A DNA stretch of 59,120 nucleotides, the filler included. It is 8 parts of 8 records of this genome, joined end to end, with 100 filler letters (N's around TTAATTAATTAA, not from the genome) between each part and the next. Parts side by side here need not be neighbours in the genome. Positions count along the whole stretch, not along the records: positions 1 to 5,360 come from SRR31147125_167851; 7 more parts are not named here. One strand, written 5' to 3'. Each line of letters starts with the position of its first letter. The first letter of the stretch is position 1. Below, piece by piece: positions 1 through 50,300 of this stretch. A program made the position numbers and the translations under genes. The notes beneath the pieces were generated by a model that did not search any database, was not told where the DNA came from, and saw nothing but the letters and a program-made list of their open reading frames with translations.

Positions 1-68
1 GGCCTTTTTCAGCCGCTGATTCTCGCTGATTGACCCTTGCTTCACCGACCATAAACAAATAACAGGAC

Positions 69-97
69 GGCCGGAAAGTAAATCCGGCCTCTTTTTT
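69..97 (+). terminator. Probable intrinsic terminator hairpin
   Basis: GGCCGGA (69-75) pairs with TCCGGCC (83-89), followed by TCTTTTTT. Confidence 0.55.
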
Positions 98-129
98 AAG
101 GCGTTCCCCTTCAGATTGACAATTCACCC

Positions 130-294
130 TCAGCTCTTCTTGCTGGTCTTCGCAAAGAAGGGTGTGTATTGCTGTACGACCGAGGTCCCCTTGCACTCCG
201 GGCAGATAACCCCCCCTTTGTCGTGTTCTTCCATGTGCATGGTGACCGAAAAAATCTTCCCACACGTCTCGCAACGGTACTCATAGATAGGCAT
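130..294 (-). CDS. FmdB-family zinc-ribbon protein (54 aa, below the ORF-track cutoff)
   Basis: Manual translation MPIYEYRCETCGKIF...VICPECKGTSVVQQYTPFFAKTSKKS shows the MPxYEYxC start and two CxxC pairs; GGAGG upstream. Confidence 0.85.
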   Translation of the reverse strand: MPIYEYRCETCGKIFSVTMHMEEHDKGGVICPECKGTSVVQQYTPFFAKTSKKS

Positions 295-478
295 GCCTGT
301 CATCCTCCCCGATGGTAACAGTGTCAGTTTCCTGAATATAAATTTAAAGAACCTTCGACGTTTGTCAACACGGAACCCGGAAGGCTTTGGGGCGGCACCC
401 TTCCGTACAACAGGATTTCAGTGAGAGCACGGTCTCAACATGGCCCTTCAAGACCTGGTTCCGTTTTTGGATAATGCC

Positions 479-1018
479 TCAGGGGACTTTCACGAATTCA
501 AAACGGTCCATCAGTTCGCGGCTCAAAAGAGACACACCGCAGCGGTCACCCACCGTTTCAATGGCCACAATGGCGTCCGGGTTGGCAAAGTCAACCGTTG
601 CGGCGGCCCCTTGTTCCAACAGTTTTTCCAGGATAAACGCGTCCAGAGACCGCTCCACCTCGGGCGAGATAATTTTTCCCTTGAGCCCGCGCCGTTCCAG
701 ACGGACGTAGAATCTCTTCCCCGGAAAGTGTTCAAGATAGGGTGTGACGGCCTCCCGAACCTTATCCGCAAAGTTATCCTGGCGGAAGACGAAAAAGCTG
801 TCGAATGGCACTATCCGGCTGATTTCCTGATAAAAAGGGTCCTTTTCAATTCCGCGCTTGTGGATGTCCTCCAGAAAATCGTTGAGGTTCGGGACCTGCC
901 CGAGAATGACCCCGAAAAACTCGCTCTTCTGAAACACCCCGTAGCTGGACAACTCTCTCAGCAGGTATCCAAAATGGGCCCCTTCCGCAATCGTGACCAG
1001 CAGGTTGCAGGTTTTCAT
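479..1018 (-). CDS. THUMP-domain RNA-binding protein
   Basis: 179-aa ORF with FYVRLERRG...VDFANPDAIVAIETVG, typical of THUMP. Confidence 0.75.
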   Translation of the reverse strand: MKTCNLLVTIAEGAHFGYLLRELSSYGVFQKSEFFGVILGQVPNLNDFLEDIHKRGIEKDPFYQEISRIVPFDSFFVFRQDNFADKVREAVTPYLEHFPGKRFYVRLERRGLKGKIISPEVERSLDAFILEKLLEQGAAATVDFANPDAIVAIETVGDRCGVSLLSRELMDRFEFVKVP

Positions 1019-1344
1019 GTCTTTAAGTTTAGCGTAAACAGAGCTTTTTTGGGGAGAGGGGGATTGGAAAACCGTTCAGTCTTCCATCTATCGACTGGGT
1101 TTTAATGGCTGCTTTCCCTTCAGTCTTCAGCCTTCGGTCTATTCACCTGATTTAATACCCGCTTTTTCTTGATTGATCGGAACAACAGGAGTACCCTATG
1201 AAAGATTTAATGTAGGGGGATGAAAAGATGATGCACAGCCAAAATGGATTTTTTCCGAACCGCTATAAATGGAACTTACCAGATAGCGGTTTTTTTGTAC
1301 CTTAAATCATCCTCGTTTTCATTATTTGAGGAATTATTGGAATT

Positions 1345-2903
1345 ATGACCAACGGACAAAAAAAGAAGCTGGAACAGCAACTTTGGAATATTGCCGATTC
1401 GTTGCGTGGCAAGATGCACGCAGACGAGTTTCGCGACTATTGCCTTGGGTTTATTTTTTACAAGTACCTTTCCGAGAAGATGCACCGCTACGCCAACAAC
1501 ATCCTGAAAGAGGATGGGATAGACTTTCTCGACATTGACGAAGGTTCGGCTGACGGTCAGGAGATGCTCGCAGCCTTACAGGAAGAAGCCGTTGCTCAAC
1601 TCGGATACTTTCTCAAGCCTGAAGAACTCTTCAGCACCCTCGCCAAGCGGGGAAGCGACCCGGAGCAGTTTATTCTCGACGATCTCACTGCTGTGCTGCG
1701 GAGTATTGAGCGCTCGACCCTGGGGACCGAAAGCGAGGACGATTTTGAAGGTCTATTTGATGATCTCGATCTGACCTCGACCAAGCTGGGGCGGACCGAG
1801 AAGGCGAAGAACGCGCTGATCGCCAAGATTCTGACCCATCTTAACAAGATCGATTTCCGTCTCGATGAGACCGACGCGGACGTCCTCGGCGATGCCTACG
1901 AATATCTGATCGGTCAGTTTGCCAGCGGAGCGGGGAAAAGGCCGGGGAGTTCTACACGCCCCGCGAAGTTTCGACCATTCTTGCCAAGATCGTTACTACC
2001 GGCAAAGATCGCCTCCAATCGGTCTACGACCCCACCTGCGGTTCCGGTTCGCTGCTGTTGCGCGTGGCGCGTGAAGTGGAGGAGGTCGCCGACTACTACG
2101 GCCAGGAGATGAACCGCACCACCTTCAACCTGGCGCGGATGAACATGATTCTGCACGATGTTCACTTCCGCAACTTCGATATCAAGCAGGAAGACACCCT
2201 GGAACATCCGCAGCACAAGGATCTGCGTTTCGAGGCCGTGGTCGCCAATCCGCCGTTTTCGGCCAAGTGGAGCGCCAACCCCATTCACCTGAGCGATGAC
2301 CGTTTCAGTCAGTACGGCAGGCTGGCGCCGTCATCCAAGGCCGATTTCGCCTTTGTGCAGCATATGCTCTATCAGCTTGATGAGAGCGGCACCATGGCCG
2401 TGGTACTTCCCCATGGTGTGCTGTTTCGCGGCGCGGCCGAAGGGCATATCCGCAAATATCTGATTGCCGAACAAAACTGGCTCGATGCGGTCATCGGCCT
2501 GCCCGCCAACATCTTCTACGGCACCTCGATTCCGACCTGCGTGCTGGTCTTCAAAAAATGCCGGCAGCAGCCGGAGGATATACTCTTTATCGATGCCAGC
2601 GCCCATTTTGAAAAGGCCAAAAACCAGAACCTTCTGCGGGTTGAGGATATCGGCAAGATTGTCACCACCTACCGTCAACGTCTGGTAGAGGACAAATACA
2701 GCTACCGCGCCTCTCTCGCCGAAATTGAAGAGAACGACTACAATCTCAATATCCCGCGTTATGTTGACACCTTTGAGGCAGAGGAGCCGGTTGATCTGGC
2801 GGCGGTGACGGCGGAGTTGAAGGAGCTGGAAGCCGGGATGGGCGACATCGACGAGAAGATTCGCGGGTTTTGTGACAAGCTTGGAATTGAGGCGCCGGTG
2901 TGA
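1345..2903 (+). CDS. hsdM: Type I restriction-modification methyltransferase subunit (one-base frameshift near 1936-1939, probable sequencing error)
   Basis: LWNIADSLRG N-terminus, GDAYEYLIGQFASGAGK[K]AGEFYTP, YDPTCGSGSLL, ANPPFS; adding one A in the A-run joins ORFs 1345-2112 and 2058-2903. Confidence 0.93.
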
Positions 2904-4048
2904 TGGTTGCGGTGGAGAAAGGACATCTTCCGGAGTTGCGGTTTCCTGGGTTTAAAGGTGATTGGAGGGAAGGCAAGATTATTGAATTTTGTCCTTTGCA
3001 AAGAGGTTTTGATTTACCCGTAAGTAGCATTATCAGTGGCAAATACCCAGTTGTTTTTTCGAATGGAATCCTTAAAACGCACAATGAATATAAAGCAATA
3101 GCTCCAGGGGTAGTAACCGGGCGTTCTGGCACTATAGGCAAGGTTACATTCGTTGAAGAAAATTATTGGCCGCACAATACATCATTATGGGTAACTGACT
3201 TTAAAGATAACGACCCAAAATTTATTTACTTTTTCTTATTAAGGTTGGATTTAACTAAATTTAGTACTGGTTCCGGTGTCCCAACTTTAAATAGAAATGA
3301 TGTTCACGTATTCAAGACTCTGATTCCAAAAACAAAGTGCGAACAACAAAAAATCGCTGCCTTTTTGGGTGCGGTTGATGACAAGCTGACGGCTTTGCGG
3401 CGCAAACGCGAACTGCTGCAAGACTACAAGCGCGGCATGATGCAAAAAATCTTTTCCCGGGAACTGCGCTTTAAACGTGACGACGGTTCTGATTTCCCTG
3501 ATTGGGAGGAGAAGACAGTTGGCGATTTTATGGCAGAAAGCACCGAAAAGGGGTCTAAAGGTGATGGTGCAAAAAAAATTACCGTAAAATTATGGGGAAA
3601 AGGGGTTTTTGCTAAAGAAGAAAAGATGCAAGGTAGTGTAAACACACAATATTATAGAAGAAGATCTGGGCAGTTCATTTACAGTAAGCTGGATTTTCTT
3701 AATTGTGCTTTTGGCATTATCCCAGATTATCTTGATGGCTTTGAGACGACAGTGGATTTGCCGTGTTTTGATATCGAAGACGGGATTAATAGAACTTTTA
3801 TTCTTGAATATATCAAACAGAAGTCCTTTTACAAAAAGTATGGGGAAACAGCCGATGGTTCGAGAAAGGCAAAAAGAATTCATGCAAATATTTTTCTTCG
3901 CTTTCCTGTGAATCTCCCATGCATCGCTGAACAACAAAAAATCGCCGATTTCCTTTCAGCCATTGACGCCAAAATCGAAGCCGTTGCCAAACAAATCGAA
4001 AAGGTCGAAACATTCAAAAAAGGCCTGCTCCAAAAGATGTTTGTATAA
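2900..4048 (+). CDS. hsdS: Type I RM specificity subunit
   Basis: PELRFPGF start, two TRDs, two EQQKIA conserved helices, ends KKGLLQKMFV; start overlaps the hsdM stop (GTGA). Confidence 0.95.
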   Translation: MMVAVEKGHLPELRFPGFKGDWREGKIIEFCPLQRGFDLPVSSIISGKYPVVFSNGILKTHNEYKAIAPGVVTGRSGTIGKVTFVEENYWPHNTSLWVTDFKDNDPKFIYFFLLRLDLTKFSTGSGVPTLNRNDVHVFKTLIPKTKCEQQKIAAFLGAVDDKLTALRRKRELLQDYKRGMMQKIFSRELRFKRDDGSDFPDWEEKTVGDFMAESTEKGSKGDGAKKITVKLWGKGVFAKEEKMQGSVNTQYYRRRSGQFIYSKLDFLNCAFGIIPDYLDGFETTVDLPCFDIEDGINRTFILEYIKQKSFYKKYGETADGSRKAKRIHANIFLRFPVNLPCIAEQQKIADFLSAIDAKIEAVAKQIEKVETFKKGLLQKMFV

Positions 4049-4116
4049 AGCAATGGTGAATGGTAAATTACTGAATTGTGAATAGAAATTCGATCTTCAT
4101 TGAGGGAATTTTTGTC

Positions 4117-4536
4117 ATGACTCAAGACGTTCGCTGGAAACAAAGATTCGACAGCTGGACTAAAGCCATGGAGCGGTTGCATCGATTCATGGCGCTTGAA
4201 AAGATGGACGAGTTTCAGGAGCAGGGCCTGATTCAATGCTTTGAATACAATCATGAATTGGCCTGGAAGACCCAGAAAGATTTTCTCGTGGCCCAGGGTG
4301 CTCAGGATCTTTACGGTTCGAAAAATGTTGCCCAGCAGGCCTTTGCCACCGGTCTGATCGAAGATGGTGAGGTCTGGATCGATATGATCAAGAGCCGCAA
4401 CCTGTCGGTTCATACCTATAACGAAGAGACCAAGAACGAAATTATCACCGCCATTATCGAAAAATATTTCGCCGCCTTCTGTAAACTGCACAAAAAATTA
4501 ACCGCGCTGGCAAATCAATATCCGGATGAAGGCTGA
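4117..4536 (+). CDS. HEPN-family nucleotidyltransferase substrate-binding protein (HI0074 type), putative RNase toxin
   Basis: DVRWKQRF, GLIQCFEYNHELAWKT and the Rx4HxY motif RNLSVHTY; GAGGGA RBS before ATG 4117. Confidence 0.9.
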   Translation: MTQDVRWKQRFDSWTKAMERLHRFMALEKMDEFQEQGLIQCFEYNHELAWKTQKDFLVAQGAQDLYGSKNVAQQAFATGLIEDGEVWIDMIKSRNLSVHTYNEETKNEIITAIIEKYFAAFCKLHKKLTALANQYPDEG

Positions 4537-5360
4537 CGATCTACAGTTCGGTCTCAAGGCCGATGTCATCGACAAGGTACGAGCGGCTCTGGCCGGATTC
4601 GAGCAGATTCGTTCGGCGACATTGTACGGCTCGCGTGCCAAAGGAAACTTTAAACCCGGCTCGGATATCGATCTGACGTTGACTACCGAAGGGGATCTGC
4701 CGCCATCGTTTCTTAATCGTGTCGCCATGGCCCTTGATGATCTCGACCTGATTTACACCTTTGATGTTTCGCTCCTGGATCAGATCGACAACGAAAACCT
4801 TCGCGACCATATCGAGCGGGTCGGGGTTGAATTCTACAACGCCGGGGAATACGCCCGGTGCCGGGAGGCCCGCAAAAAAGCGCAGTCTTACGTCCGGGAA
4901 GCCCATCAGTCCGAGGCCCAGCTGGAGGAAAACCTCATCAGGCGGCTGCAGGGACTCGGATACGAACGTGTCACCATCGCCGACAGCGACGAGCTGCGAT
5001 CCAATCTCAAGCGGCAACTGGAAAAACACAACAAGGTCAGCCTCTCCGATGGTGAATTCAACCGGGTGCTCAACCACCTCGACAAGGGAAGTGTGTTCGA
5101 GCGCTCCAAAACCCTGCGCGACCGCATGCACCTGACCCGTGACGACGGATCATCCCTCTATCTGCAATTCCTCAATACCGAACACTGGTGCCGGAACGAA
5201 TACCAGGTCACCAACCAGGTTTCGCAGACGGGAAGCTATCTCAACCGCTATGATGTGACCCTGCTCGTCAACGGCCTGCCGCTGGTGCAGATCGAACTGA
5301 AGCGGCGGGGGATGGAGCTGAAAGAGGCGTTTAATCAGATCAACCGCTATCAGCGGCACT
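4526..5360 (+). CDS. hsdR: MNT minimal nucleotidyltransferase fused in frame to the N-terminus of type I restriction subunit R (3' truncated by the contig end)
   Basis: aa 1-103 MNT (LYGSRAKGNFKPGSDID = GSx10DxD; LRDHIERVGVEFY), then a linker, then HQSEAQLEENLI...RYDVTLLVNGLPLVQIELKRRG, characteristic of HsdR. Confidence 0.88.
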
Positions 5361-5460
5361 NNNNNNNNNNNNNNNNNNNNNNNNNNNNNNNNNNNNNNNN
5401 NNNNTTAATTAATTAANNNNNNNNNNNNNNNNNNNNNNNNNNNNNNNNNNNNNNNNNNNN
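5361..5460. other. Artificial contig linker (N44-TTAATTAATTAA-N44); identical linkers at 18361-18460, 26286-26385, 31588-31687, 40485-40584, 45826-45925 and 51713-51812
   Basis: Identical six-frame-stop spacer seven times, with abrupt changes in gene content and composition across each. Confidence 0.99.
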
Positions 5461-7688
5461 ACAAACCCATGAGTTCTTCAAACATTGCATCGACATTTTC
5501 ATCTGCATCCAGGAAGTCATCCTGTTGTGGACAATGAGTCGTGTACTGCAAAAAGCGAAGCAGGGACGTACCCATACAACAGACATACGCTTCTGGAGGC
5601 GTGCTCCCCAATCCACCTCTGCAAGATTGATTGAGTGGATGGGCATGTGAGGAGGAACGACACGAAAACGCACCTGCATTATTCGTCGCTAGTTCATCAT
5701 AACTCTCTTGTTGACACGTTTCCATGTACTTTTTCAACTGAGCGGTAGCCACAGATCCGAGCATGTCGGCGTGCCTTGGGGGTGTCAGGCGTTCGTACAC
5801 TCGATGGAGAAACAGAGAATCTATGCACTTTGAGAGTTGTCGAACACCTTCATTGCCAGACGTGCGGTCACGCGGAGTCACAAGTGTTTCCACAAGATCA
5901 CAAGCATCTCCATCGTTGGGTTCAGGTTCATCTTTTCGGTTGGCCATACCCTCGTCGTCCTGGTCCCCGACACACATCAGAACTACACACATCAGAACCA
6001 CACACACATACCAACTCATCTCCCTCTTGTTCCTGTTTGGAGAGGGGATAGGACTTGCCTCGTCCCTTCTCCCTTGTTCTGCGAGCGGCTCGCGGAGCCC
6101 CACCTCGTCGCATCCATGAGCGTTTGAATGTCTTGGCACCCTCAATATCCAAATCTTCTTCAGGCTCTCCCTTTAACAAGCTTCGCAATTTCCCTTGCCA
6201 ATTCGTGTTGCTCGTGTTCTGATGGTTCCGTGTCAAAGACTATGCCCAAGACAAGCAGCGCCTGCCATACCGTCATCTTCTTGCGGGCCGCTCGCACCCA
6301 CGGATGCTGCCTAAGTTTGGTTGCCGATGCACGTAGATTCGGATCCTTCTGAAAGCATTCAATCAAGAAGTCGCGACACGCCTGTATCATCACACCACGA
6401 TCAGAAACAAAGGAGACGGTATCCTTACGGAATCCTACAAACCGGCGATATGTCATCAGGCAGTGGCGGATGATCGTCTTGTACAATACGAAACAGGGCA
6501 GGCATAGGAAGCAAGTCATAATAGGGGGGATGCCTGTCTGAAGTTCAATAATTGTACAACCGACACTCCTGTGCCGATAGGGCGGTGAGGAGACAAAGAA
6601 GGAGGCACAGCGACAAACCAGATATCGGAGGCAGTACTCTGACTTGACATTTCAATCACCTCCGGGGCCACTAGCACAATGTGAGGATCACACACATCAA
6701 ATCACAAATCACGAATCGCATACTCCAGTAGGGAGTTCCTACAACGGAGGCATCTCCATTCTTCTCCTCTTCAAGCTTCGCGGATACACCGAAATCCGCT
6801 AGCTTGATGAGACCATCTTTCGTAGTCAACAAGTTAGCACCCTTTAAGGTGGGATGGACAAGTAAGGAACACGAACGGCGAGAAGGAGCGGGGAAGAAAT
6901 CGGACCTTAACGTCTCGGTGGACCACACCCTGCTCGTGAAGATACACAAGACCATCAAGGACTTGTGCAATGTACCTTGAGGAAAACGTGAAAAGGGTGT
7001 TCGCGTGTCATCGATGACGTACATGGAAACAAGTGATTCATTGAGTGGACCGAATTTCTTCAAGATGTGTGCCAGGGAGCCAGATTCCACGTACTCCAGG
7101 GCAATGAAGAAATGATCGGCCGTCTCACCCCTGTGATGCAACAATGAGGAGAATGGAAGACAAGACACGTCTCAACGACACACGAATCAATGTACTTGAC
7201 GATGTTTGGATGGTCAAGCATCCGCAACAACCCAATCTCCGCCTGAAAGGAAAGGTTCACGCCAATGATCATCCCTCTTGTCTCCTGGGGATATATCACA
7301 CCTTAATAGCATCGAGTTGGTCTTGGCGTATGTCATTGAGGGAGATTTGCTTGACGGCCACAAAATCCCCAGTCTCAGTGTTCAAACCTTTGTACACTTT
7401 CGCAAATCCTCCTTTCCCAATAACCTCCCCGAGTTGCTAGAGGGTGCGAAAGGGTGTGTGAGCGGGGAAGAAGGAGTACGCGCTCAAATAGCTCACGACA
7501 CGACTTCTTCCTCTCCCTCTTCTCTCATCATGGGATCACAACGGACACCATACGTAGCGTGTCACACCCCACGCCCACCCCACGGGATGGTTTGAATACA
7601 CGAGACTCCAACCGACCGACCGACCAACCGCGGCACGCACAAACTTCCCCGCGACTTTTGTCCCCTCCTCCTTCTTATCCATCGACAT
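5461..7688 (-). CDS. Eukaryotic multi-exon STE-group Ser/Thr kinase, Cdc15/SepH/MAP3K-epsilon-like (3' truncated)
   Basis: Spliced exons give [106 protein letters not shown] introns. Confidence 0.88.
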
Positions 7689-8089
7689 CCTGTGCGCGTC
7701 AAACGGACAGGACGCTTTCTTTCTGTCCCGGCATGCACCACACGCAGGCACACAGTCGTACACGTAGACAGAACGGTGTCACTGCGTGACACACACAGAC
7801 CTCGAAACCAGAAGTACCAAGAAGGAAGTGAGGGGACGTTTCGCGTTTGAAGTTTGTTTGGATCCAATGGCAATGAGATTCACATTCAAGTTGGGAAGGT
7901 AGTGGATTGAATAATGTGATATGATTCAGAGAGACCTGGGGAGCCAATCCATCTAGTGATCCAATCCATCGAGTGATCCATCTCCATCTATCTCTGGAAT
8001 CAGTGGAAATTGGAACATTTGCTTGAGGGGCGTTCTTCCTTCCCCCTTCTCCTTCTCCATTCTCCTCTGTGTTCCGCCACGGGTCTGCG

Positions 8090-8891
8090 ATGCGGGGGGT
8101 GTTTGTGTTCCTCGCTGTACTCATGCTGGCGGTGTCTGTCGCCGCACGGGCGAGCACTCCCGTGCCCATGGACGAGGAAACGGAACAGTCTCTTCTCCAA
8201 CTGAAGGCTGAGAACAAGGGCCCCCACTCATCCCTCAACAAACTCACGAGCAAGATGCGCACAGAGGCAGCGTCCAGTGGCAACATCCTCAAGTCCCTGG
8301 AACGTGACCTGAAGAAGGAGGTGAAGAGCATCAAGGACTCCGTCAACGAGCTGGGCCGAGCGGACCCCGTTTCCAAGGGCCACTCGGAGAAGGCACGAGC
8401 AAAGGCTGAGATGAAATGGGACTGGGAGGGGGACGAGGACTTCGGTAGCGACCTCCCAGACCCCCGTAACGTGGCCAAGGGACGGTGTGAGATCTGCATC
8501 TTCGTGTTGGAAGAGAAGGAACAACACCGACACCCCCTCTGCTCCGCCCTGCGATCCAATCCCGTGTTCTACGGAACGGTGCGCTCTTCCCTCCCTCTCC
8601 CGTCTTCTCCCTCCCTCTTTCCCTCTCTCCCTCTCTCCCTCCTTCCTCCTCTCTTTGGTTCTTTCTCATTCGGACGTGGCCCCTCAGTGTGTGGGCGTTT
8701 TGGAGGCTATGCTGATGTACGATCGTTGGTACGTCTGGTGGATCTATGCCGGCTGCATCAAGCGCAATGGAGTGGGGCAACTCGAGAAGGTCAGGCCATG
8801 CCCAGCACACGCTGTGTGCTCGTGGATCTACAACCCAGAGGACAAGAGGACCTTCTGCCCACAAGACACCAACTATCACCCTGGCGTGTGA
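8090..8891 (+). CDS. Secreted Cys-rich protein with a saposin-like Cys pattern, one intron (8579-8687)
   Basis: Signal peptide MRGVFVFLAVLMLAVSVAARA; CEIC...LC...|CVGVL...GC...CPAHAVC...FC continues in frame after removing the GT-AG intron. Confidence 0.65.
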
Positions 8892-9044
8892 GGAGGGAGA
8901 CCGCGCAATCTACTGGGGGGGCCTAGGTTCTCATTCTGTCCATCACAATCACTACAGGCGTGCCCTTGTACTGACAACTCTTTTTCCTTGCCACCACGAC
9001 GAACCACATCAGACTGTCCTCTTTACGGCAGAAACACTGTCGCG

Positions 9045-11296
9045 TCACGTTTGCATGTATCGCATAATAGAGTGGAGTCCGTACAAGAGGCCCGCCTGTC
9101 TGCGTGCCTCAACAACCAGCAACGTGATATGCACCTTCTCGTAGGGCTGCACCTCGAATCCGAGGTTCGAGATGTCTGCATTCGTCACAAGTTCTGAATG
9201 ACACGCCACCTTCTTGATGAATTGCTTAATGGGGATGTTGAGAAGTAGATTCACCTGAAATCCGATGGTGACTGAGACGTGAGGCAAGGACACGGAACAA
9301 ACATTGCGATAGTCGTAGTCGTCGTGGAGCATCCCCATGAGACGGTGGACGTAATACCAGATCGCCTGACGAAGGGGTTTCGTATTGATGTTCCGACACT
9401 TGCTGAATCTACGCGCCGATCATCAGGCAGGACATGGGAAGGGGGGAGGGGAGTGTGGCTCCATACGCACGAGTGATCGGTCATGTTGTAGATAAGAGAA
9501 AACTCCTCGTCAAGAAGGGGGGCCGCGCCACGGTAGTAACGATTCACAAGAGAGTAGCCGTGATCGGACCACGAGTACTCGTTCACACGAAATATGTCGT
9601 ACTCCTTAGCGTGAACATCAAAGTCGACATGACGAAGGGGAAAGGCTCCCATGTAGTTGCGGGGATCGGAATGGACAGGGGAGGAACTACACACACAATG
9701 AGAACGGAACGTCCGATCTCTCTCTCCTGTTTCGTCTCACATTTCAGGAGTAGGGGGAGAGGGCAAGGAGGAACTGCTGAGGGAGAACTTGGAGTTAAAA
9801 TATGCTGCGGCTGGACACAATGTGAAGTGAGATGCATCGGTATGGTTCTCCGGTCTCAGCACATACTGTCCTCGGCCTTTTCAAACAACTGCTCTCTGTC
9901 TGGCTCCTCTCTCTCCTCCCCTGATTCTTCCTTCTCTTCTTGAGCTTTCTGCCGCAGAAGTTTGATCACAATCTCCGTATCTTTCCTCATAGCGGATGTA
10001 TCTGATACAACACACCATAGCCAGAAGTTACCACAAACAGCGAACGTGAACAAGTGTACCTTTTGGTGGGACATCGACGGGCGCACTCGGTTGGGACTCG
10101 AGAGGGTTTTCAAAGTCCACTTCCGAGGTAATGCCACACCCCCAGACCAAATCGCTCAGGGCATGAAAGGTGGACAGGATCACAAAGGCGTGGACCAACT
10201 CGCCGATCGACCACGAGTCCGCCCCCCGGACAAGTCCCTGATCTCACGGTGGGAAAACCGTGGCACAATACAAGAGAGTGCACCTCAATGTGTTCTCGCG
10301 TCATGAGCCACGGTTGGTGCGCAAGGACGGCATTGACCTGAAGTAGATTCGCGAGTTTTTTCGGTACGGCATCCATGCCTCCCAGCCACTCCTGAGGGCC
10401 ATCGGCCTCCAGAAACAGACGCTCATGAAGCCACACAAGATAATGACAGCGATGACGACTGGCAGCCTGAGACGTGTGGGGTCCATTCACCAACGCACCG
10501 CAATCCCAAAATCCAATCACTAAACGTACCATAAGCGCCAGGAAATGACGCCAGATCACAGGCAGAGGACCGGTCTGTCGCATAATGAACTCATATGCTG
10601 TATGAAATACTCGAAGGAACGAGGGGTGCACGCTGCAGGAGTCCGTTATACCAAGGATCTACCACCACCACCATCACCACCCTTGCCCTTCACAAACCCC
10701 ATCACCACCATATAGTGGGGAACACGTCCCCATATAAGAAAGATCTCTTCCATGAGTTGACCGACCATGGCTTGTGTGTTATCAAGAGAGGGAACAGTTT
10801 CTCGTGGGAAAAAGGTAGAGGGACCAGCAGATGGCTTGGGAATGACAATCCCAAGCTCCTACACCGACCGTCACCAGAGAGCCCCATCCCATCCCATCCC
10901 ATCCCATCAGGGAACACACCTCCCGTGCCCACAGAAGGAAATCCGAAAAGCGTTGCCTTACATCACGGAAGGGACTCTCTGTTGCCAAGAGCAGCATTGT
11001 TCGTACGTAGTGATTGATCAACCGTACCCCCCGATCCACCTCTTGATTCACGGACACCTTAGGGATAGATGGGTAGCGAACGCAGGGGTCCTCGCCCACT
11101 CGCACACTTTGAATTGTTTAAAAATCCTCTCGCACTCCATGGCACGAACGGGTTCATCTGGCACCAGAATGGGATAGAAGAGTTTGCCTGGAGTGTTATC
11201 AAGGCTGTGTCCCCCGTTGTCATTACAACCGTCATCGCCGTCTCCTCGTCTCCTCTCCTCTCCTGTCGTCTCTCCTGTCCTGTCTCTCTCCCCCAT
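9045..11296 (-). CDS. SESN: Sestrin (multi-exon; start approximate)
   Basis: GPLPVIWRHFLALM|AASRHRCHYLV, PKKLANL...LAHQPWL, WSIGELVHA, YSWSDHGYSLVNRYY, HDDYDY, EKVHITLLVVEARRQAGLLYGL. Confidence 0.9.
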
Positions 11297-11631
11297 GAAA
11301 AAGGCTCACAATGCACCTTAGAAACATAGACGGAATCGGGGAGGAGGGGCCGTCGTACGACTTGGGGGCACCCACTGGGGAAGAGGGATGGGGTTTACGT
11401 GGGGAGTGGAGTCTGCCACGTCACCACACCACACAAACAATGCACACACCTGCAGGTCTTTGCTCGGGACACGTGTCGTCGGAGTCCCTCTCGACGGTGG
11501 CCATTCCCAGGACCCCCTCTTCTTTCACACGGGGAAGCGACACAAGACGACCCAACCGTAGCGTACTGTGCTGCGTCTACGCGCCCCTCACCGCCTAACG
11601 AAACTGAAGGGCTGGCGGTCGACTAGGGATT

Positions 11632-13982
11632 TTACATGGGCGTGTCACGTGCGAGTGAACATCCGAAGGACATAGGATGACAATTGAGGGTGCGTAGATT
11701 CACAAGGACAATTGTGCCTTGCATGGCTCTCGTGTCAGATGAAATGGGAATGGGGAGAAGAATCGCACCACTTTGAGCAAACGATGGTAAGGAAAGAAGT
11801 CGGATCTGTTGTCCTTGCCGTCCTGAAGTGCATGCATGGATTGGGGGGAAACAGAAGCAGAAGGAAGAAAAAAAGCAATCGGATACCTTCTACCGTGCGT
11901 GTCATGTACGCGCTCTGGTTCCCTACAAAGTAAACATGGGGACATGTGTGAATAATGAAGGGATCTTGGTCGTGGAAGGGGTAGCAAGCTGTTAGAGAGG
12001 CGTGAGTTGTCCGTCGATGCATGGAGACCGCCCATTTTTATCACCCAAGGTATCCGGAGCCGTGGGTGAGAGGTGACGCCATCGTAATGTCGACTCCATC
12101 ACATCCAAGATAGAATCACTCTTGACCACGCGAAGAAGATCATCGATCGGTTGTCCTGAGGTACCGAGGAACCTTGTTGGAGGGAATATCACATGAAATG
12201 CCATACGGAGCGGTAGAGGTGGATCGTCCCACCTCACACCACCAATGGAACATTCAAACGGATTTGTTGTGGAACTGAATGTTGCGTATTGACCCACCGA
12301 GGGAAGAAGACACGGTTGCATGGGCTGTGTGAAGGAGCGCTAAGGACGAGGAGAGAGGAAAAGGGGGATTTCGTACAAACTTGTTGAGGAAGTGCAAAGT
12401 TTGTGGGATCAGTGCCTCCCGGCATGAGATCCACAGGAACAGAGGCGGCCACTTGCGTCAGAAGCTATTTCCCCCATAAGGGATCATCACCCCCAACCGC
12501 TTCCCAACTTCTTCATAATCCCACGCACCAGGTCCAACTCACGGATGGGACCGGTGAGTTCAATGGGTTGTCGCGTTCCAGGAGCCTTGGCACCATCATG
12601 CCTCATGCAATGGTCCCCCCACATCTCCGAGCACGACACACGTACATGCAACAACTGGAACCCTTCCATGTGTTCCGGATCAAACGCCGTCACCGAGTTC
12701 CCTGCAATGATTACTCGTACAATTCGCGACTCGAATTCTTGTTCCTTAAGGAGCCACGTGTGTTGGAGTCCGCGACGTACAACCCCGAGATCCCAATGTA
12801 CCCGATCGCTTCCGAGATGTCCACTCAAGTAGTCTGCCAACAACTGAAGAGCAACGGGATTGTTTCTGCACAACGTGTGAGAAGGCAACAACAGCAGAAG
12901 GGAATTCACACACTCTGGTTGTCCATAGACGAGCCCAGACAGCAGTGCAACATAGCAATCGTCCTCTCCTGTCCCAATCACGTCATGAGGAGGGCCATGG
13001 ACAGAGAGTCAGATCAACATACGTGCGGGAAAGGGTGGTTGCACGGGAAGATCAGGGAAGCATAGATCTTCAACTGCGAAGTCACCACCAGATTGAAGAG
13101 TCCCCAGAAGCGCCACTACGACACCTGGGGGTACATCAGACTTCAAACTCCATTGTACACAAAGAATCACGCACCCGTAGCCAGGCACTCGACATCAAGC
13201 ATGCTGTCTGTCCCTTCTCCCGTTGCAGCTGTCAGTCGGCATCGTCCCGTCTCATCTTCCAACACAAGTGTGTCGGAATCACTAACAAAGCTAGAGAGCC
13301 GATCTTTCACGCGTGTACGCTGATCTCGTACTGTAAAACGACCAACCACAACACAACCAATCCATCACACACACCTCCTTTGCAAATTCGTCTAGGACGC
13401 TTGGTTTCAGTGCCATTTCCTTGTATAATGTGCCGATCACAACCGAGCGAACACCCTCTTCCAGACGAAGGATGTGTTCCACAAGACACACCCCACCTGC
13501 GACCGTCCTCAATCGTGGCACCGCATTATCACCAGAACGACGCACGAGAAGAGCATCCCCAATGACCTTGTACGACATCACGCAGAATCATACGAAGATC
13601 ATTCAAGCGTGTGTAGTAGATGTGGGAGTACTGTGTGTGTGTGTGTGTGGAATGGCGGGAAACACGCATGAGAACCTATGGGTCAAAGAGTGTCTCGGGG
13701 GAGAAGAGCGCACCTGCTTGTCAAAGGTTCGCTTTCCGAGTCGCCAGCGACGAGATGGTTCGGCGTCATAGGGAGCCGTGTGTCGCGGGAACCGTTTCTC
13801 TTTGTCGTGAATGTCATCCTCTGATGTCCCATCTCCTCCTCTGGCGCTGTGCGTGTGAGAGAGGTCTTCCACACCCAACCCCAAAGCACATCCTCCCCAT
13901 CCACACACCTAGCGGTACATGAAATGACTTCATCACATCCTCCATTGGCAAAGAGAGATGACGCATGCGACCCTGTCTCCAT
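11632..13982 (-). CDS. POLD2: DNA polymerase delta small subunit (multi-exon)
   Basis: VIGTLYKEMALKPSVLDE, LVLEDETGR, RVIIAGNS, VDLMPGGTDPTNFALPQQP, FLGTSGQPIDD, LRWRHLSPTAPDTL, CYPFHDQDPFII..CPHVYFVGNQ. Confidence 0.93.
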
Positions 13983-14045
13983 GGTGAAGGGGGAAGAGAG
14001 GAGATCTGTTTCCTCTGTTTCCTCTGTTTCCCCTTCCCTCCCGCC

Positions 14046-14400
14046 ATGGAGAGCCCTAGACGCATCTCTCGCACGCTCTATCGCTCTCTTCTTCGAACAG
14101 CTGTCTCCTTTCCTGAACATAATCTTAGGAGAAAACTCGCCAACAACGTCAGGGAAGTGTTTGCCTTTCATCGAGACGAGAAGGATCCCATACGCATTGC
14201 CTACCTCCAGCATCAGGTGGGGAGGAGGGAAGAGGAGAAGGATCGTGCACAAGACGTAAGACGACGGTCTTAAGGGATCGAATGTCCTGCGGGTGCTACG
14301 ACGCCTCGCATCTCTTGACAAGCAAACGTTCAATTTGCTCTTTTCTCGGTGTGGACCTCCACCTCAACCCCATGAACAAGGAGACGGGGCTACACAATGA
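14046..14400 (+). CDS. LYR-motif (Complex1_LYR, Isd11-like) small mitochondrial protein, one intron (14217-14274)
   Basis: MESPRRISRTLYRSLLRTAVSFPEHNLRRKLANNVREVFAFHRDEKDP...|GSNVLRVLRRL: LYR tripeptide plus the conserved downstream Phe. Confidence 0.75.
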
Positions 14401-14404
14401 ATCT

Positions 14405-16120
14405 CTACGAAGGGACGCTACGCCGCAAGGCTGGTACCATACCCACAAACGGCTTCTGGCAAACGGGGCAGAGCGAGACGTGGATGGCATGATAGATCTC
14501 CGCGCATTCCGTGCACAAACACACGTGAGGCTCTGAGGACGCTCGATCAACGGCACGACACCACGACACACCATCCCGACGCACCACTTTGTTCATGGAC
14601 CAATAAAACATTCGTAGGACGGGATTGACACACCACACACATGCCTAATGGTGCACGTGGGGCATTGGAAAGGCATGATGGTCCTGAATTCTCATTTTCC
14701 GTTGGACACTACAGCAATAGAATGGGGTCATTCTATCCACGCGCACACGTGGCGTTACCTCAGAGGTTGGCGACTCGCTTGAAGATGGGGAATCTGGTGG
14801 AAGTGTCTTTGTTTCTGGAGTGGTTGCTATCTCGGCAACAATCGAATCCCAAAAACCTTCAGCCCTAGGGTGGTTCAATGGATGGCGTTCTCTGGGATAG
14901 TGAAGGGTTAGGGAGTCGGTTTCCATGAACTCCTTAAGGGTCATTCGAGCTTTGGTCTGCGGCATCGAAACTGAGGTACAGAACAGGTAGGACAATGACA
15001 GCAAATCTCAAACCTTTTTCTCTTTCTTGCTCTTCTTCTTTGTTGACGCATTCGAAGCGAACATTTGATCCAAGGGGGAATCGTCCTCGATGGATGTGGG
15101 CGTCAACGGGATCATCTCGCGTGGAAGGGGTGGAATGTTCAATTCCTGTCGGGAGGGGACATCCTCCCTGTTGTGATGAATGTGATGGTCTGAGGGACTC
15201 TCTTGACAGTCTGGAGGTGTCTCCTTTCCCCTGTACGTGGGAGGAGAAGACAATTCCTTCGTCTTTCCTTTTTTCGTCTTGTTCTTTGTCGAAATCGAAG
15301 CAGATTCCAGACTTGAAGATTGCATCCGGACTGTGAGGGCTGAAAGTTTCGTCTTGTTAAGAACCCAATCATGCTTCTTGTTGTGTTCTCTGTTGCCACG
15401 CATCAGAGAAAACTCGACACACACACACGCGCAACGGTAAAGCCCACCCATGTTCATGAATGCTAATACACTTGATGAATCCTGTGCAGTCGGGCGTCAA
15501 ACAGCGTTCTCCCTCGTCCAATGCAAGCCGACGGGACAATGCCCTCCAACACGACTGTACACATCCAGGGGATTCCTGAGGCGTACCACGGCACAAAGAA
15601 GGGCCATCTTACCTGATGATACGTGATCGTGCACTTCTCTGAGCAACTCACTACAACCCACTTCCCCTTCTGTATAATAACTGCTCCGTTTTCGTGACAA
15701 TCAACACGACGACAGATTCCCACGACTCTTTGTTCATCCTCTGGCTGATTCTCTTGTTTTTCGTCGCCTTCCTTCTTCTTCTGTTCAATCAATGTTTTCA
15801 CGACCTCGGGAACCTTCCTCACAAAGCAGAATGAAAAAGACCCATCTCTTCCATTGCCTTTGGAACATACCACTGGGGGTTCCTGGGCTTGTCGCATCTC
15901 CTGTGCCCTTCTCTGTCTTTCTTCCCGTCGTTCCTCTCTGAGAACAGTGTCGCTATGGGCAGAGGGATGGATATTCCAAATCTGTACCTCAATTTCTTCG
16001 CTTCCCTCTGGCGAGCGAGACGCTGCAAGGTTGCCTCGCGTTTTGCCTCATATGCTTCCAAATTACGAATTTGATTGGGTACGGGCCTACATGCGTCAGA
16101 GAGCGAGGAAGTGAGGGGGG
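14405..16120 (-). CDS. Multi-exon RING-finger protein, putative E3 ligase (start uncertain)
   Basis: C-terminal CVWC...HVCLCTEC...CPVC; internal CSEKCTITYH...CW...CLTPDCTGFI Cys/His motif. Confidence 0.6.
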
Positions 16121-16183
16121 AAATCCTATTATCCACAAAATCGCACTTTGCATCCTCGACAGCGGGTGGCTCCAGGCCCGTTG

Positions 16184-18114
16184 TTAAATGTAACGACCTT
16201 GGAATTGCACCGGGAGGAGGGGATGAACCACCTGACAAAGTGGGTGCGTGAGAAGTGGTGATTCTGTGCCGCCTGGTTCCACACCAAGCCTAATGCAAAT
16301 GATCTCCCCGGACCCGTCATTCACTACTACGACCTGCTCCTCTACCACTCGCTCAAGCGTTTCGCCCGGTGTATCGAAAACGCTCCACCGCAGCATCCCC
16401 GTGGACAAAATAACGCCCCCGTAAACTTCATGAACGTATCCAATGAGAATTCTTATTATTCGGCTGGACGTCTTTTGATACATGCTTTGCCCACATCACA
16501 CCATTGGGATACATACGGAACAAGAGATGTCTTGCCCTTCATCCATTGTTTCCTTCCCAGAGCGTAATTCCACTGACGACCGCCCCGTTGTGTCAGCTGT
16601 ATACAGGATATACAACGCGCGTACATGTCTGTCTGGATCATCGAAGTTGCCTTTTGCATTCTTTTTTATGTGACCGTAGTCGTGACGTTGATGGATCGCT
16701 GTCAGTGTCTTGCCTAAGTGAACAACACAAAGGAATGAGACAGTCCATCTTATCGTCTGAACACATGAAGACGCACTAGCATCAACCGTGGTGATGTTCA
16801 ACGTGTACCACGCCTGGTGTAAGAGCTGTTGCGTAACGAGAATGATGAGTTTTTCACACGAGATGGATCGTCCCAACAACGACGAACCCAGTTATCGTAT
16901 GCGGGACGACCAATGGCAAATGGGAGTACAATCTCGGTGAACAGACCCACTGTGTGCAGAAAATAGTCTTGACCCCATCCTGTGAAGCGCTGCAGGTGAA
17001 AATGAGACGGACTGCTTAGCTTCCACATCCCACACGTACATGTCCTACGGCGCGGATGTTGGTCAATAGGTTCGCTTCCCAATTCTGACGGGAAAAATTG
17101 ATACGGGGCTGTGATAGGTACATCAGATTCGTGATCCTCTTCGCTTTGCTCCCTTACACACAGATATGTCGAGGTTGGTCCTACGTCCAACAATAAGAAA
17201 CGGAGAAGGTGAAAATCGCTGTACAGTGGCCTGCAGAGCAATGAACGCCTGGGGACAAAATACCCATATCAGGTTCCTTACGTTGAGAGTTGTGATGAAA
17301 TCCGATGTAAAAATGATATCGGAGTTGGCAAAACAGATCAATGTGGTATTGGCCACAGCCTCGCCGTATTTGAGAATAAAATCAAGTGTAGGAGTGCCAC
17401 GAGGCGTACGTGCTGTTGGTGAACGAACATTCAAAGACATGCGGGAGGTTCGTACACCCCAAGGAATGCCTAACGCACCAATGTTTGGTACATGCAACGC
17501 CCCTATTGCTTGTGCGACCTCTTCAATTCCAGGCTCATCCCCAAAGATAATAATATCTGGCTTAGGACGCAGCATCGACCATGACCGAAGGGCTGACGAC
17601 GAGAGTGTGTGAGGGAACACCCCCAAGATACCACCAGCAACCATTTAGTTGCGCGCGAGCCACTTGAGGATTGATATCAAATCGTTTAGGTACACCCAGA
17701 AACGTCACTCGCAGTGTTTCGGGCTGTAGACGCGTGTAAGGAACACTTCCTTCCATACGCGATACCCAGCCTTACATTGAACTCCTTGTTGGGATTCGCA
17801 GGATCAAAGGAGGGGATAGGTACGGGAGATGGCCACTTGGGCCGTTGTTGAAGGTTTAGTGGGGGTGAGGGTGCCACGGGTGCCGTGGGTGCCGTGGGTG
17901 CCATGGATGCCATGGGTGCCAACACCTGTTGTGGGATGTCATCTTCGCTTTGTTTGTCCTCTGAAGGGTACGACTTGTGCACTTGCACCGTCCGTCCGTC
18001 CGTCAGCTCAGTGGTGGCACAAGAGGACAACGCACCATTTAACAACACTTCCCCACCCAAAATACAAAGTAGGCCTAGTAAGAGGAGGGCTTGCGACCAC
18101 CGCACGCGCCTCAT
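16184..18114 (-). CDS. Type II membrane GT-A-fold glycosyltransferase-like protein (multi-exon; ends approximate)
   Basis: N-terminal TM helix, Pro/Ala stem, then ALRSWSMLRPKPDIIIFGDEPG, GTPTL, FANSDII, FLIVGRRTN, FAIGRPAYDNW, AIHQRH. Confidence 0.65.
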
Positions 18115-18652
18115 CGCGGCAGGGAGGGAATTACACACGAGAAGGCCTCTTGCCCTCTCCATTCTTCCCCCGCTTTCCACCAGCCGATGGGGGGTGTGGG
18201 GCACGTTCGTGGTGCTAGTCCTCTGCACGTGGAGTCTTCGCGCAGTTCACATCCGGGATGATGTCACAGAACCCGACACCACAGCGTCCCGACAGGTGGA
18301 TACCCCTCTTGATCCTGTGGAGGAACTCATTGCAGTACGTACAAGGGCCAGAGAGAGGACNNNNNNNNNNNNNNNNNNNNNNNNNNNNNNNNNNNNNNNN
18401 NNNNTTAATTAATTAANNNNNNNNNNNNNNNNNNNNNNNNNNNNNNNNNNNNNNNNNNNNTTATTTGCTCAAAATCCGGACTATTTTGCCATTCCCGTGT
18501 AAAAAATAAAATTCCCTGTCAAAAAGCCCATATTCCCACCCAAATGGGCCCCAAAAAGGGTCCGGTTTCCCCCTGTCTCCCCCGGGAAAGGGGAGATCCC
18601 TAAATTGATCTGCCTAACCGAAAAGAAAGATCCGGACGGTTTTAACTGAATC

Positions 18653-45925: not shown

Positions 45926-47294
<1,369 letters not shown>

Positions 47295-47399
47295 GTTGTC
47301 AGCCGTGTCTTTGTATTATACAAGGTCCATGAAGTTCTGTTTGTTGTCGGTCTACTTTGTTCTCTTCACTGCTTGACGGAATTGCCTTCCTATCTCTTT

Positions 47400-50300
47400 C
47401 AACGGTACCTTGTACCTAGAACAAGAAGATGAGAGGGTGGTGGCGGCAGAGGCGTGTGTGTTATGTACTTGAGGGTTTTGGCTGCAAAGACCTCACTCAG
47501 CCATTCATCGAAACGGTGAAACATGACCTGATGGAACCCCATGAGACACATGTGTTCACAACAATGTAACGCTTGACCTTTTCAAGGAAGGCCTTCTTTG
47601 CCGTGAGCTTGTGAAACGATCGAGCACATCGTGTCGCAAACGTGAAGTAGTCGTCGCAGCTTGATCCATCCTATCAACAACAATGCCAACATCGACAACG
47701 AACACACCTGTCATGATAGGTATTGAGATAACGTGTAAATGTGTTGATTGCAGGCAAGGTGAGCAGTTGTTCCTCTTCCAATGTTGGTTGCTAAATACGC
47801 GCAACACCTCAGCGACAGGAAACACATCACACGTGCCCACAATCGCACCGCTACTTCAATGTTATCTTGATGCCTCCAGACAAATTCCACCTCCTCCTGA
47901 AATCAAGCTTGTTGGTTTGCACGGCAATCAGATCAAACAAGACACGTCACCTTTCCCGGTTCTTCCACAGCTTTGATCGGGGAAGAAACAGTCACCTCCT
48001 CACACACAACCGTTGTCTCGGCCTCGACTTCGACCTCGTCCACTCCACGGGAAAGATCATGACTACATCACACAATTAATGGAGAGGTACTATCGCAAGA
48101 CGGCAAACCTTTCACTCTCAGTGCGTGGGCGCGTCACGGCAGGCATGCCAAGGATCGTTCGCAAATGATCCTAGACTCCACACCGTCAACAAAAGAAAAA
48201 CCAGGGCGCTTGTCTCGCACCTTGTCGCGTTCGACCTGTTTCGTCTTCTCTTCAATTCCCACTAGAAGACTCTGCCAACAACACAGCGTGAGGATTCCTT
48301 GCAAGCATCCTGCGCACAACAAAGACTACCTCGTGGGTCAGAGACGCCTTCTCAACAAGCGTCATCAACTGCCAAATGCTCGACTGAAGTGTTGTCACAC
48401 GCACTTGCGCACGCCTAATCGTGGATCTAGAACTAGGTGTTAATGGAGGATCCACATCACAGTGAAGAGAGACCTGAGCTGTTCCGCATTAGCAGCAGCC
48501 GCGCCCGCAATTTTCTCTCGCAGTTCATCTCGTTCGGATTTCAACTCCGCTAGCTTCACCTTTGTCACCTTGAATTCATTCTCCTCTGCGCATGTGTACA
48601 CGTATCACGAAGGAAGGTTGTGCATGGCGGAATTCGTCGCGTACTTGCTTGAAGGGAGTCCAATTCTTTCAAAAGGTGTTCAATCTTTTCCTCGAGCCTA
48701 GCAACCAGAGATACAGTCAATCAATTAATCAATCAATCAATCAGCCAGCCACATACGCATGTTGCACGGTCCGTGACTGTTCCTGCATGATCTGATTCTC
48801 CTTCTCCAGTTGAGAACATTGTTGAGATATCTGAGCAAGTTCCTTTTCCTTTGCTCTGAGCACTTCCAATTCGTTTTCACACTCCAACACTTGTTTGTGT
48901 GCGGTGTAGTAGTCCTGCGCACATTGAAGAACCGGTCATACAGATGCGAATCGTTGCTGTGTTCCAACACACCTGCTTGAATTTTTCCTTCATTTGTGAG
49001 AGGTCCACAACTTGTTTCTCCAGCAAGGCCACGCGTTCACTCTCTTCGCCCTGCTTTGCCTCGTTCAATAGGGCGTTCTCCACTTCCAATCGTGCCATCT
49101 TCTCCTTTCTGCCAAGGAAGCGGAGGTCAAAGATAAGCAAGCGAGGACCAGCCGTACAGTTCAGGTGTGAAGACATTCTCGGGGGGCACAACTTCAGAGG
49201 CGATCCGTGCGGATTCTACCAACAAGTGAGGCCCTTGTCACACACACACACACTCACTCACACACTCACACCACCATACCATTATGGGCTTTGGCAAGAT
49301 CCCCCTCAAGTTTCTTGATTCGCTCTGTCGCTTCGTCTACCTGAGCGCACAATTTTCGCACATGTTCGTCCTTTTCCGTATGGTCCCCACGCTGCCGCTC
49401 CAAGGAATACACGAGTCGGGAGATCTCGAGATCCTATGCATTGGGATGTCGGGTTCATGTTCCTCGTTGCCCTCTCCCACCTTTTGCTGCGCGGACAGTG
49501 TCATCTGACTTGATTCCTCCTCTAGTTGTCGTAATTGTTGTCGGTACATCTCCACCTAACAAGAAGAAAGGAGTTAGACGAAAGAAGGGGGAGATGAGAA
49601 CGGTACCTGTGTGTTGAGAACAGGGATCTTCTGGTTGGCCACTTGGAGATCATCACTCTTCCGCTGTAGCCCTTCCATAGTTGTTTCCAGTTGTTCAACA
49701 CGCGCTTCAGCAGCATCCGCCTGGTGGAAAAGGACGATCACACCAATGGGATACTACAAGGGGCACCCTCAGCATACCATCGCCGCTCGTGCCTGAAGGG
49801 CCTTCATTGTCGTCTCCAGTTCGGATATCTTTCGTCCCGCCTCATCTCCCTTGGCAAATAGGTTCGCTTTTGCTTCCTACGCTCCCCTACCGTGATGAAC
49901 CGAGCCCCACAAGAGAACGGGAGGGGCACAAACCTCTTCATACTGCACCGCTTCCTGACGTTTGGCTTCAGCCTCTCGCAGGTTTACGCGCAACGTCTCT
50001 ACTTCCTTTTCCAGGTCCAATGCCTGAGTGTGCATCAACGTGTCAGAGGACGATAAGAATATCATGCGACAACCCTCTGATTAGCTCCGTGGAAGTCATG
50101 TTTGAACTTTGATTTCAACTGTTCCATGTCTGTCAATTGGGTCTCAAGAAGAGCAATTCGCTGTTGAATCTCTTCTTTCTCTACACGAAGAGTTGTTGTC
50201 TCCTCTTCAAGACGAGACATCTTTCGCTTTCTGGAACGATCAAGCGATCAAGGCATGTGACGTGGAGGGAAGCATACAAAACACCACACGTACAAGGTTG

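Follow-up and report, generated by a model that had tools for sequence, protein, structure and literature searches.

Class I HepT/MntA modules, i.e., type VII toxin-antitoxin systems, are defined by a HEPN protein of family PF01934 or PF08780 with an RX4HXY motif and an adjoining MNT protein of family PF01909 with a GSX10DXD motif (PMC7641770). The closest characterised pair is that of Legionella pneumophila (8xdj and 8xeh), whose HEPN is described as a Mg-dependent RNase with Q44 and E47 as active residues. Its MNT, which has no alpha4 helix, poly-AMPylates this HEPN; unmodified HEPN persists and is also restrained by a dimer-tetramer equilibrium (PMC11586414). PrrC, in which an ABC-ATPase is fused to HEPN, is kept latent via a restriction enzyme (PMC12707154; PMC3710099). 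Furthermore, PF08780-type HEPNs have been reported to be occasionally fused to MNT, REase or methylase domains (PMC3710099), and the term HsdR does not occur in the available part of that source. In FhepTA (PMC13000451), MNT likewise lies within a larger polypeptide, but its partner is its own toxin, and the available text contains no occurrence of restriction, HsdR or HsdS. Additional genes have also been described among the core genes of type I RM, BREX and DISARM operons (bioRxiv 10.1101/2024.01.29.577857), but as separate genes, and neither MNT nor nucleotidyl occurs in the available main text.

The locus analysed here combines elements of these systems in another way, since the antitoxin is joined to a subunit of a different defence system while the toxin remains separate. 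It lies in a stretch of DNA of 59,120 nucleotides, filler included, which is referred to as the window. The initial annotation had proposed the order hsdM-hsdS-HEPN-[MNT::HsdR], and this is borne out by gene calls and by Pfam domains within a single frame (Table 1). The intact motifs that it had listed, RNxxxHxY (here RNLSVHTY) and GSx10DxD, are present, as is an overlap of 11 nt between the HEPN 3' end and the MNT start. Its statement that no ATG or GTG precedes the HsdR part also holds, as the fused frame has no in-frame ATG, GTG or TTG between codons 68 and 181. The nuclease motifs RYDVT and QIELK of HsdR are found at residues 241 and 255 of this frame. A THUMP-domain gene (479-1018, - strand) is divergent from hsdM and lies outside the module.

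Table 1. Features of the type I operon with the fused MNT::HsdR frame in the window.
Feature	Coordinates	Strand	Support and remarks
hsdM, type I methyltransferase subunit	1345..2903	+	HsdM_N, N6_Mtase; TIGR00497 on both pieces
hsdS, specificity subunit, 382 aa, no MNT fusion here	2900..4048	+	Methylase_S, two stretches; PADLOC Specificity_I
HEPN toxin gene, HI0074/PF08780 type, 139 aa	4117..4536	+	PF08780 E 9e-38; TIGR01987
Fused MNT::HsdR open frame, one frame	4526..5360	+	Polbeta residues 17-105, HSDR_N 128-277 (Pfam)
MNT antitoxin domain, codons 1-105	4526..4840	+	Polbeta, NTP_transf_2; GSx10DxD at 4628-4672
Linker, 22 codons, predicted single helix	4841..4906	+	no in-frame start codon
HsdR N-terminal nuclease domain, ended by contig edge	4907..5360	+	HSDR_N 128-277; REase_I E 3e-54 (PADLOC)

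As in class I HepT/MntA, the window contains a PF08780 HEPN with RX4HXY and an adjoining PF01909 MNT with GSX10DXD. However, HepT/MntA is a two-gene module with a small free antitoxin of approximately 100-150 aa, whereas here MNT continues in frame into HSDR_N and, judging from relatives, is the first domain of a protein of approximately 1085 aa, and the pair lies inside a type I operon. From these domain assignments, we file the system as a variant of class I HepT/MntA and not as a plain member. Unlike the Legionella MNT subfamily, which is devoid of the alpha4 helix, MNT is followed here by a 22-residue predicted helix. The likeness to PrrC/EcoprrI consists of an HEPN RNase gene within a type IC-like operon, here between hsdS and hsdR, and of a possible second-line role; in contrast to PrrC, the HEPN stands alone, with no ABC-ATPase fused to it, and the restriction subunit carries an enzymatic antitoxin as a fused domain. 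EcoR124I HsdR (type IC) matches the relative P0001 (E 1e-172), which has EcoR124_C, nuclease, Walker A and DECHR motifs as in EcoR124I HsdR; the latter lacks an N-terminal MNT, and the match begins at P0001 residue 119. The window itself holds M, S and the nuclease motifs, with the motor motifs, Walker A and DECHR, known from relatives only (kept in 49/49 MNT::HsdR among the matches listed), and the RM system is, by its likeness, probably EcoR124-like (IC). The available parts of the open literature (including PMC2701414 and PMC12839542) yielded no description of MNT::HsdR or MNT::HsdS, and subscription papers or supplements may list such proteins. The fusion, which joins two known kinds of system and whose function we only infer, was thus apparently undescribed before. 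Public annotation names the fused proteins plain HsdR or HsdS, so that the antitoxin domain is hidden.

The initial annotation had left unsaid that the window consists of eight contigs joined by N spacers, that HsdR is cut at 5360, and that hsdM carries a one-base slip at approximately 1935. The fused locus is on the first contig, which ends at 5360 inside hsdR, so that HsdR is present for approximately 151 codons only. Positions 5361-59120 hold seven further contigs, with spacers of the form N44-TTAATTAATTAA-N44. Some of them look eukaryotic, with low coding density and fragmented frames at 5461-18360 and 45926-51712, and others bacterial; the window is therefore a mixed assembly. A Logan contig from sequencing run X1 covers 1-5360 with 0 substitutions and without any indel within 4526-5360. 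Two one-base gaps, at 91 and 1935, separate it from the window, and neither touches the fusion. Since X1 is possibly the source of the window DNA, this match is not independent. A 221-base piece from run X2, which belongs to another study, spans 4856-5076 and crosses the linker-HsdR junction with 2 differences and 0 gaps. The X1 contig agrees with the uninterrupted MNT-linker-HsdR frame reported initially, and the X2 piece with its linker-HsdR junction; runs X3-X7, with small shares, were left out of the evidence. The split of hsdM at approximately 1935 is an assembly error, because the slip is absent from the X1 contig, and a truly broken hsdM was rejected for the same reason. An assembly artefact as the source of the fusion was rejected by the junction matches in X1 and X2 together with the recurrence in other loci. 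The window proteins had no exact match in the protein collection checked, and a scan of the + strand over 1000-5360 yielded no promoter-like site, an absence that is uninformative.

The HEPN toxin is a stand-alone protein of 139 aa with a single Pfam family and without a PADLOC match. Its motif RNLSVHTY corresponds to Rx4HxY (R94, H99 and Y101) and is accompanied by Q40/E43, which align with the metal-site residues Q44/E47 of the Legionella HEPN; E43, R94, H99 and Y101 are invariant in 59/59 aligned sequences. The model of the HI0074 subfamily, TIGR01987, scores 88.2 bits (cut-off 55.8), and the closest solved chain is 8xdj from Legionella (E 5e-31). The NCBIfam equivalog cut-offs for HepT and MntA were missed (19.4 and 31.9 bits versus 60). 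For MNT, PF01909 scores 30.7 bits (cut-off 21), the motif GSx10DxD is GSRAKGNFKPGSDID at residues 35-49, and the MNT of P0001 matches the solved MNT 8xeh. An AlphaFold2 model of P0001 (mean pLDDT 76.5, pTM 0.60) contains a folded MNT followed by a linker modelled as one helix (106-126) and a hinge at 121-127 with pLDDT <50. The spacing HIxRVG-QSE is 27 residues in 51/67 fused proteins, and the linkers are rich in A, Q, R, E and K, with Met in only 11/67. Among 50 full-length proteins with the 27-residue linker, MNT is 56% identical on average (minimum 40%), the linker 27% and the HsdR body 73%; distances in MNT are correlated with those in HsdR (Mantel r 0.41, p 0.001). The linker is accordingly best described, on model and alignment, as a predicted variable helix of mostly fixed length.

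Where dN/dS could be estimated, in 14 locus pairs, values were 0.02-0.18 for HEPN, 0.05-0.31 for MNT, 0.01-0.15 for HsdR_N and 0.08-0.95 for the linker, several of them saturated; these estimates indicate purifying selection on HEPN, MNT and HsdR. A predicted complex of four HEPN copies and a 278-aa fusion scored 0.56, versus 0.04 for the best control, with at least 74% of contacts agreeing between runs and partner pLDDT of at least 70. This lends weak support, as scores of at most 0.60 were reached by only 5/78 solved complexes, yet by all 4 passing mismatches, and since a comparable complex has already been solved, the score may be memory.

A protein search with query residues 1-125 against targets of 488-2000 aa gave 170 matches. 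The 120 listed comprise 49 MNT::HsdR and 71 MNT::HsdS, and GSx10DxD is kept in 120/120; full-length MNT::HsdR relatives have 1081-1087 aa. Carriers among the matches listed include Desulfuromonas carbonis, Syntrophotalea carbinolica, Methylophaga nitratireducenticrescens, Marinomonas transparens and Vibrio spartinae, and cultured, non-pathogenic carriers include Rheinheimera baltica, R. lutimaris and Marinobacterium ramblicola. A junction-pattern search revealed 21 genome loci (19 fused and 2 unfused) as well as 25 metagenome loci, 22 of them fused, with L116, L124 and L131 dropped because they had no profile match. Two further fused loci came from the class sample described below. After merging near-identical copies, at least 38 distinct fused loci with full-length, motif-intact HsdR remained besides the window, which disposes of the concern, voiced in the initial annotation, that a Polbeta plus HSDR_N protein might be a one-off. 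These counts are lower bounds, since the junction pattern admits only linkers of 19-29 residues. The named fused loci belong to Thermodesulfobacteriota, Alpha- and Gammaproteobacteria, Sulfurovum and Verrucomicrobiota. As anticipated, an HI0074-type gene is conserved upstream: HEPN with Rx4HxY and QxFE was found in 37/37 distinct fused loci having upstream DNA (L132, which has none, is outside this count; L005 is included although ISL3 cuts its HEPN end). An unfused HEPN-MNT-hsdR locus, L012, was also identified. No relative of the fusion was found in the viral contigs scanned, and no plasmid record covered 80% of the fused query. The fusion is confirmed as real and recurrent.

Longer MNT proteins are mostly joined to type I subunits. 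Among the best 150 representatives, 48 have at least 170 aa, and 42/48 carry parts of a type I subunit: 36 HsdS (one assigned by eye), 2 the HsdR N-terminus and 4 the HsdR C-terminal domain only, with 6 others; the HsdS share among long fusions is inflated by HsdS variability. The class sample comprised 301 genomes belonging to a single class. Of 284 PF08780 matches in it, the 82 best were considered; 9 are near type I genes and 73/82 away from them, and in a further count, 11/11 HEPN/MNT pairs were away from type I genes. Within these top 82, five MNTs are fused, 4 with HsdR, 1 with HsdS and 0 with others, and fusion occurs in 5/7 cases when an hsd gene follows MNT versus 0/26 when another same-strand frame is close behind. 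Seven distinct loci (L001, L013, L018, L122, L127, L129 and L135) have HEPN2-MNT2::hsdS followed by HEPN-MNT::hsdR, and the second pair in these double-tagged operons is divergent (in L018 at 4384-6286). The Met at the old HsdS start is kept in 43/71 MNT::HsdS among the matches listed. Furthermore, four proteins of 205-286 aa (P0338, P0339, P0359 and P0373) consist of MNT and only the last 100-160 HsdR residues. Other short proteins of this type are 34-37% identical to P0338, which is the closest to a full-length fusion among those compared (66-70%). The short forms may have arisen by in-frame deletion or may represent a minimal tether kept by selection; a locus encoding one was not found in the 151 genomes searched.

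In the HsdR tree, fused and free forms are interleaved, with no fewer than 17 changes over 162 rows, 11 of them forced by well-supported branches, and a single clade of forms with 26-27-residue linkers was rejected in a 40-row subset (p-AU 1.5e-56). For the HsdR part, a single origin with plain vertical descent was rejected by both results. Linkers of 13 to 54 residues also exist. In the MNT tree, fused MNTs are interleaved with free antitoxin MNTs, and a second, divergent MNT clade is fused to HsdS. This tree has only 104 columns and many open forks. Taken together, we infer that an ancient fusion was probably lost or exchanged several times and that additional fusions used other linkers. Several other arrangements were observed in relatives. 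P0206, an HsdR of the same clade, has an N-terminal Mrr-type nuclease domain in place of MNT, and the HsdR N-terminus thus accepts other fusions. The protein encoded at L003:6725-10561 has an extra C-terminal domain of approximately 200 aa after residue ~1085, without a Pfam match in L003; its clade includes P0048, P0034, P0019 and P0133, and the domain seemingly also occurs in unfused relatives of approximately 1155 aa. A 260-aa frame lies upstream of HEPN in three Rheinheimera loci (L003:5486-6259, L011:8114-8893 and L017:5491-6270); in two of these it matches Abi_C weakly. A pair of AAA_21 ATPase and RloB precedes HEPN at L119:4056-5758.

Not all fused loci retain the methylase core. For 22/38, hsdM and hsdS could be scored: 16 are intact and 6 deleted or split by IS elements (L002, L013, L019, L039, L085 and L113), and all six keep HEPN and a full-length, motif-intact MNT::HsdR. 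As controls, 401 genomes of the class gave 27 toxin-free HsdR matches, 23 of them scorable, with hsdM/hsdS lesions in 0/23 (one hsdM was seen only in part, and one M-S was in a single frame). The difference (6/22 versus 0/23; Fisher p 0.009) is uncorrected for kinship, several fused loci being related and 26/27 control HsdRs stemming from other subfamilies (39-46% identity). Within the class sample, the corresponding values are 4/5 versus 0/23 (p 0.0002), again uncorrected for kinship, and 3/5 of the fused genomes had initially come from the targeted pattern. In four deletions the breakpoints differ, the sequence upstream of hsdM is retained and HEPN is not reached. Scars with hsdM 5' and hsdS 3' leftovers were found at L002:5460-5640, L019:8090-8260, L113:8090-8420 and L014:3491-3673; in L002, the leftovers form one 59-codon open frame. 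In the single-chromosome genome G001, no close hsdM was found elsewhere (best 48%). L113 and L136 have one common scar, and between their fused genes there are 18 silent and 6 replacement changes; this may reflect persistence of the orphan under selection, but recombination could explain it as well. In L014, a stop 4 codons into HsdR frees MNT, and the HEPN there is without its His; in L114/L125, hsdR is split by a stop near codon 365.

Since HEPN and MNT::hsdR are intact where hsdM and hsdS are lost, silencing of the toxin does not require the methylase core, and loss of the cognate core in cis alone appears not to fire the toxin. The initial annotation had suggested either a guard or a module stabilising the RM locus. 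The latter suggestion gains from deletions that take hsdM and hsdS and spare the upstream region and HEPN-MNT::hsdR, while a guard that fires on loss of the methylase core is weakened.

We tentatively interpret the locus, with a probability of roughly 45%, as a type VII toxin-antitoxin variant in which the supply of the antidote would follow HsdR and the module would function as a lock or dead-man switch. With MNT as the N-terminal domain of HsdR, one protein is predicted both to restrict DNA and to AMPylate the HEPN RNase. By analogy with the characterised family, MNT would add AMP to Y101 and thereby silence the RNase. Because the HsdR part lacks its own start codon, restriction depends on the MNT frame, and the restriction and toxin-antitoxin systems would lock each other: the toxin would penalise loss of the promoter, loss of the hsdR 5' end, or a drop in HsdR during continued HEPN synthesis. 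The tether would serve as a dead-man switch on HsdR abundance and not as a sensor of the methylase core; such an HsdR-level module is favoured, since HEPN is always kept and under selection and hsdM/hsdS can be lost from a locus that otherwise persists. Because AMPylation is covalent, the switch would act mainly on newly made toxin, and the persistence of unmodified HEPN in the closest characterised pair, as described in the available part of PMC11586414, would leave room for toxicity once the antidote is lost. However, loss of the locus would also end toxin synthesis, and with covalent AMPylation, killing after loss would not be assured. The hsdR stops in L014 and L114/L125, by which escape is possible, speak against a strict lock. 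Furthermore, the locus would equally be stabilised by an unfused cassette at this position, and the fusion itself may not be needed.

A PrrC-like guard stays in play because of the bias towards type I subunits and the double tags; here, the tether would place the antitoxin on the holoenzyme, so that a phage anti-restriction protein blocking MNT would leave new HEPN unmodified and abort the infection. We regard this as unlikely, although long MNT fusions are nearly all to type I subunits (all 120 listed of the 170 matches; 42/48), fusion in the class sample is confined to MNTs before an hsd gene (5/7 versus 0/26), and in seven loci HsdS and HsdR bear different MNTs, each MNT being paired with a HEPN of its own. 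The HsdR C-terminal domain, which binds the methylase, is the only HsdR part kept in the four short proteins. In addition, the cassette occupies the prrC slot of an EcoR124-like system as given in the available part of PMC12707154. On the other side, six loci with lost or broken hsdM/hsdS keep an intact HEPN, which argues for neutralisation without docking on a cognate core; the low linker identity and low-confidence hinge are more readily reconciled with a passive tether than with an allosteric relay, and few independent events underlie the fusions in the class sample. A broader version, somewhat unlikely in our view, is a family of guards evolved several times, with an enzymatic antitoxin on HsdR, HsdS, both or the HsdR C-terminal domain, in which phage attack would stop AMPylation and free the HEPN RNase. 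Guarding would then be exerted through a tethered modifying enzyme, and double tags would watch two subunits independently of each other. As doubtful as the PrrC-like guard is the idea that an autonomous HEPN/MNT cassette before hsdR merely lost its stop codon, with the fusion tolerated, toxin and restriction independent, and persistence explained because reversal needs both a stop and a new HsdR start. The interleaving of fused and free HsdRs, the rejected single clade, the range of linker lengths, the Met retained at the old HsdS start, the many HEPN/MNT pairs away from type I genes and the unfused locus L012 all speak for it. However, it accounts for the open frame and not for the type I bias or for two tagged subunits per operon, and the toxin is intact in 37/37 fused loci although its inactivation would be cost-free under independence. 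Very improbable, finally, is an MNT redirected to the restriction machine or a phage protein, with AMP regulating restriction, e.g., on entry into a new host. A tethered transferase would have its carrier within reach, and type IC restriction alleviation is described as proceeding by a non-ClpXP route (PMC12707154, available part); yet the cognate HEPN and its acceptor Tyr are retained throughout, and fused MNTs are interleaved with free antitoxin MNTs. The same source describes ClpXP proteolysis of HsdR for types IA and IB and another mechanism for IC, so that triggering HsdR proteolysis by ClpXP, a test in line with the initial annotation, is a doubtful one for this EcoR124-like HsdR family.

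According to the available part of PMC7641770, the trigger of type VII HEPN/MNT systems is a stated open question, for which the fusion of MNT to restriction subunits offers a concrete candidate. If the interpretation of the locus as a lock is true, it would explain why type I loci keep hsdR after the loss of hsdM and hsdS. In cells carrying such loci, survival is likely tied to the continued production of the restriction protein.
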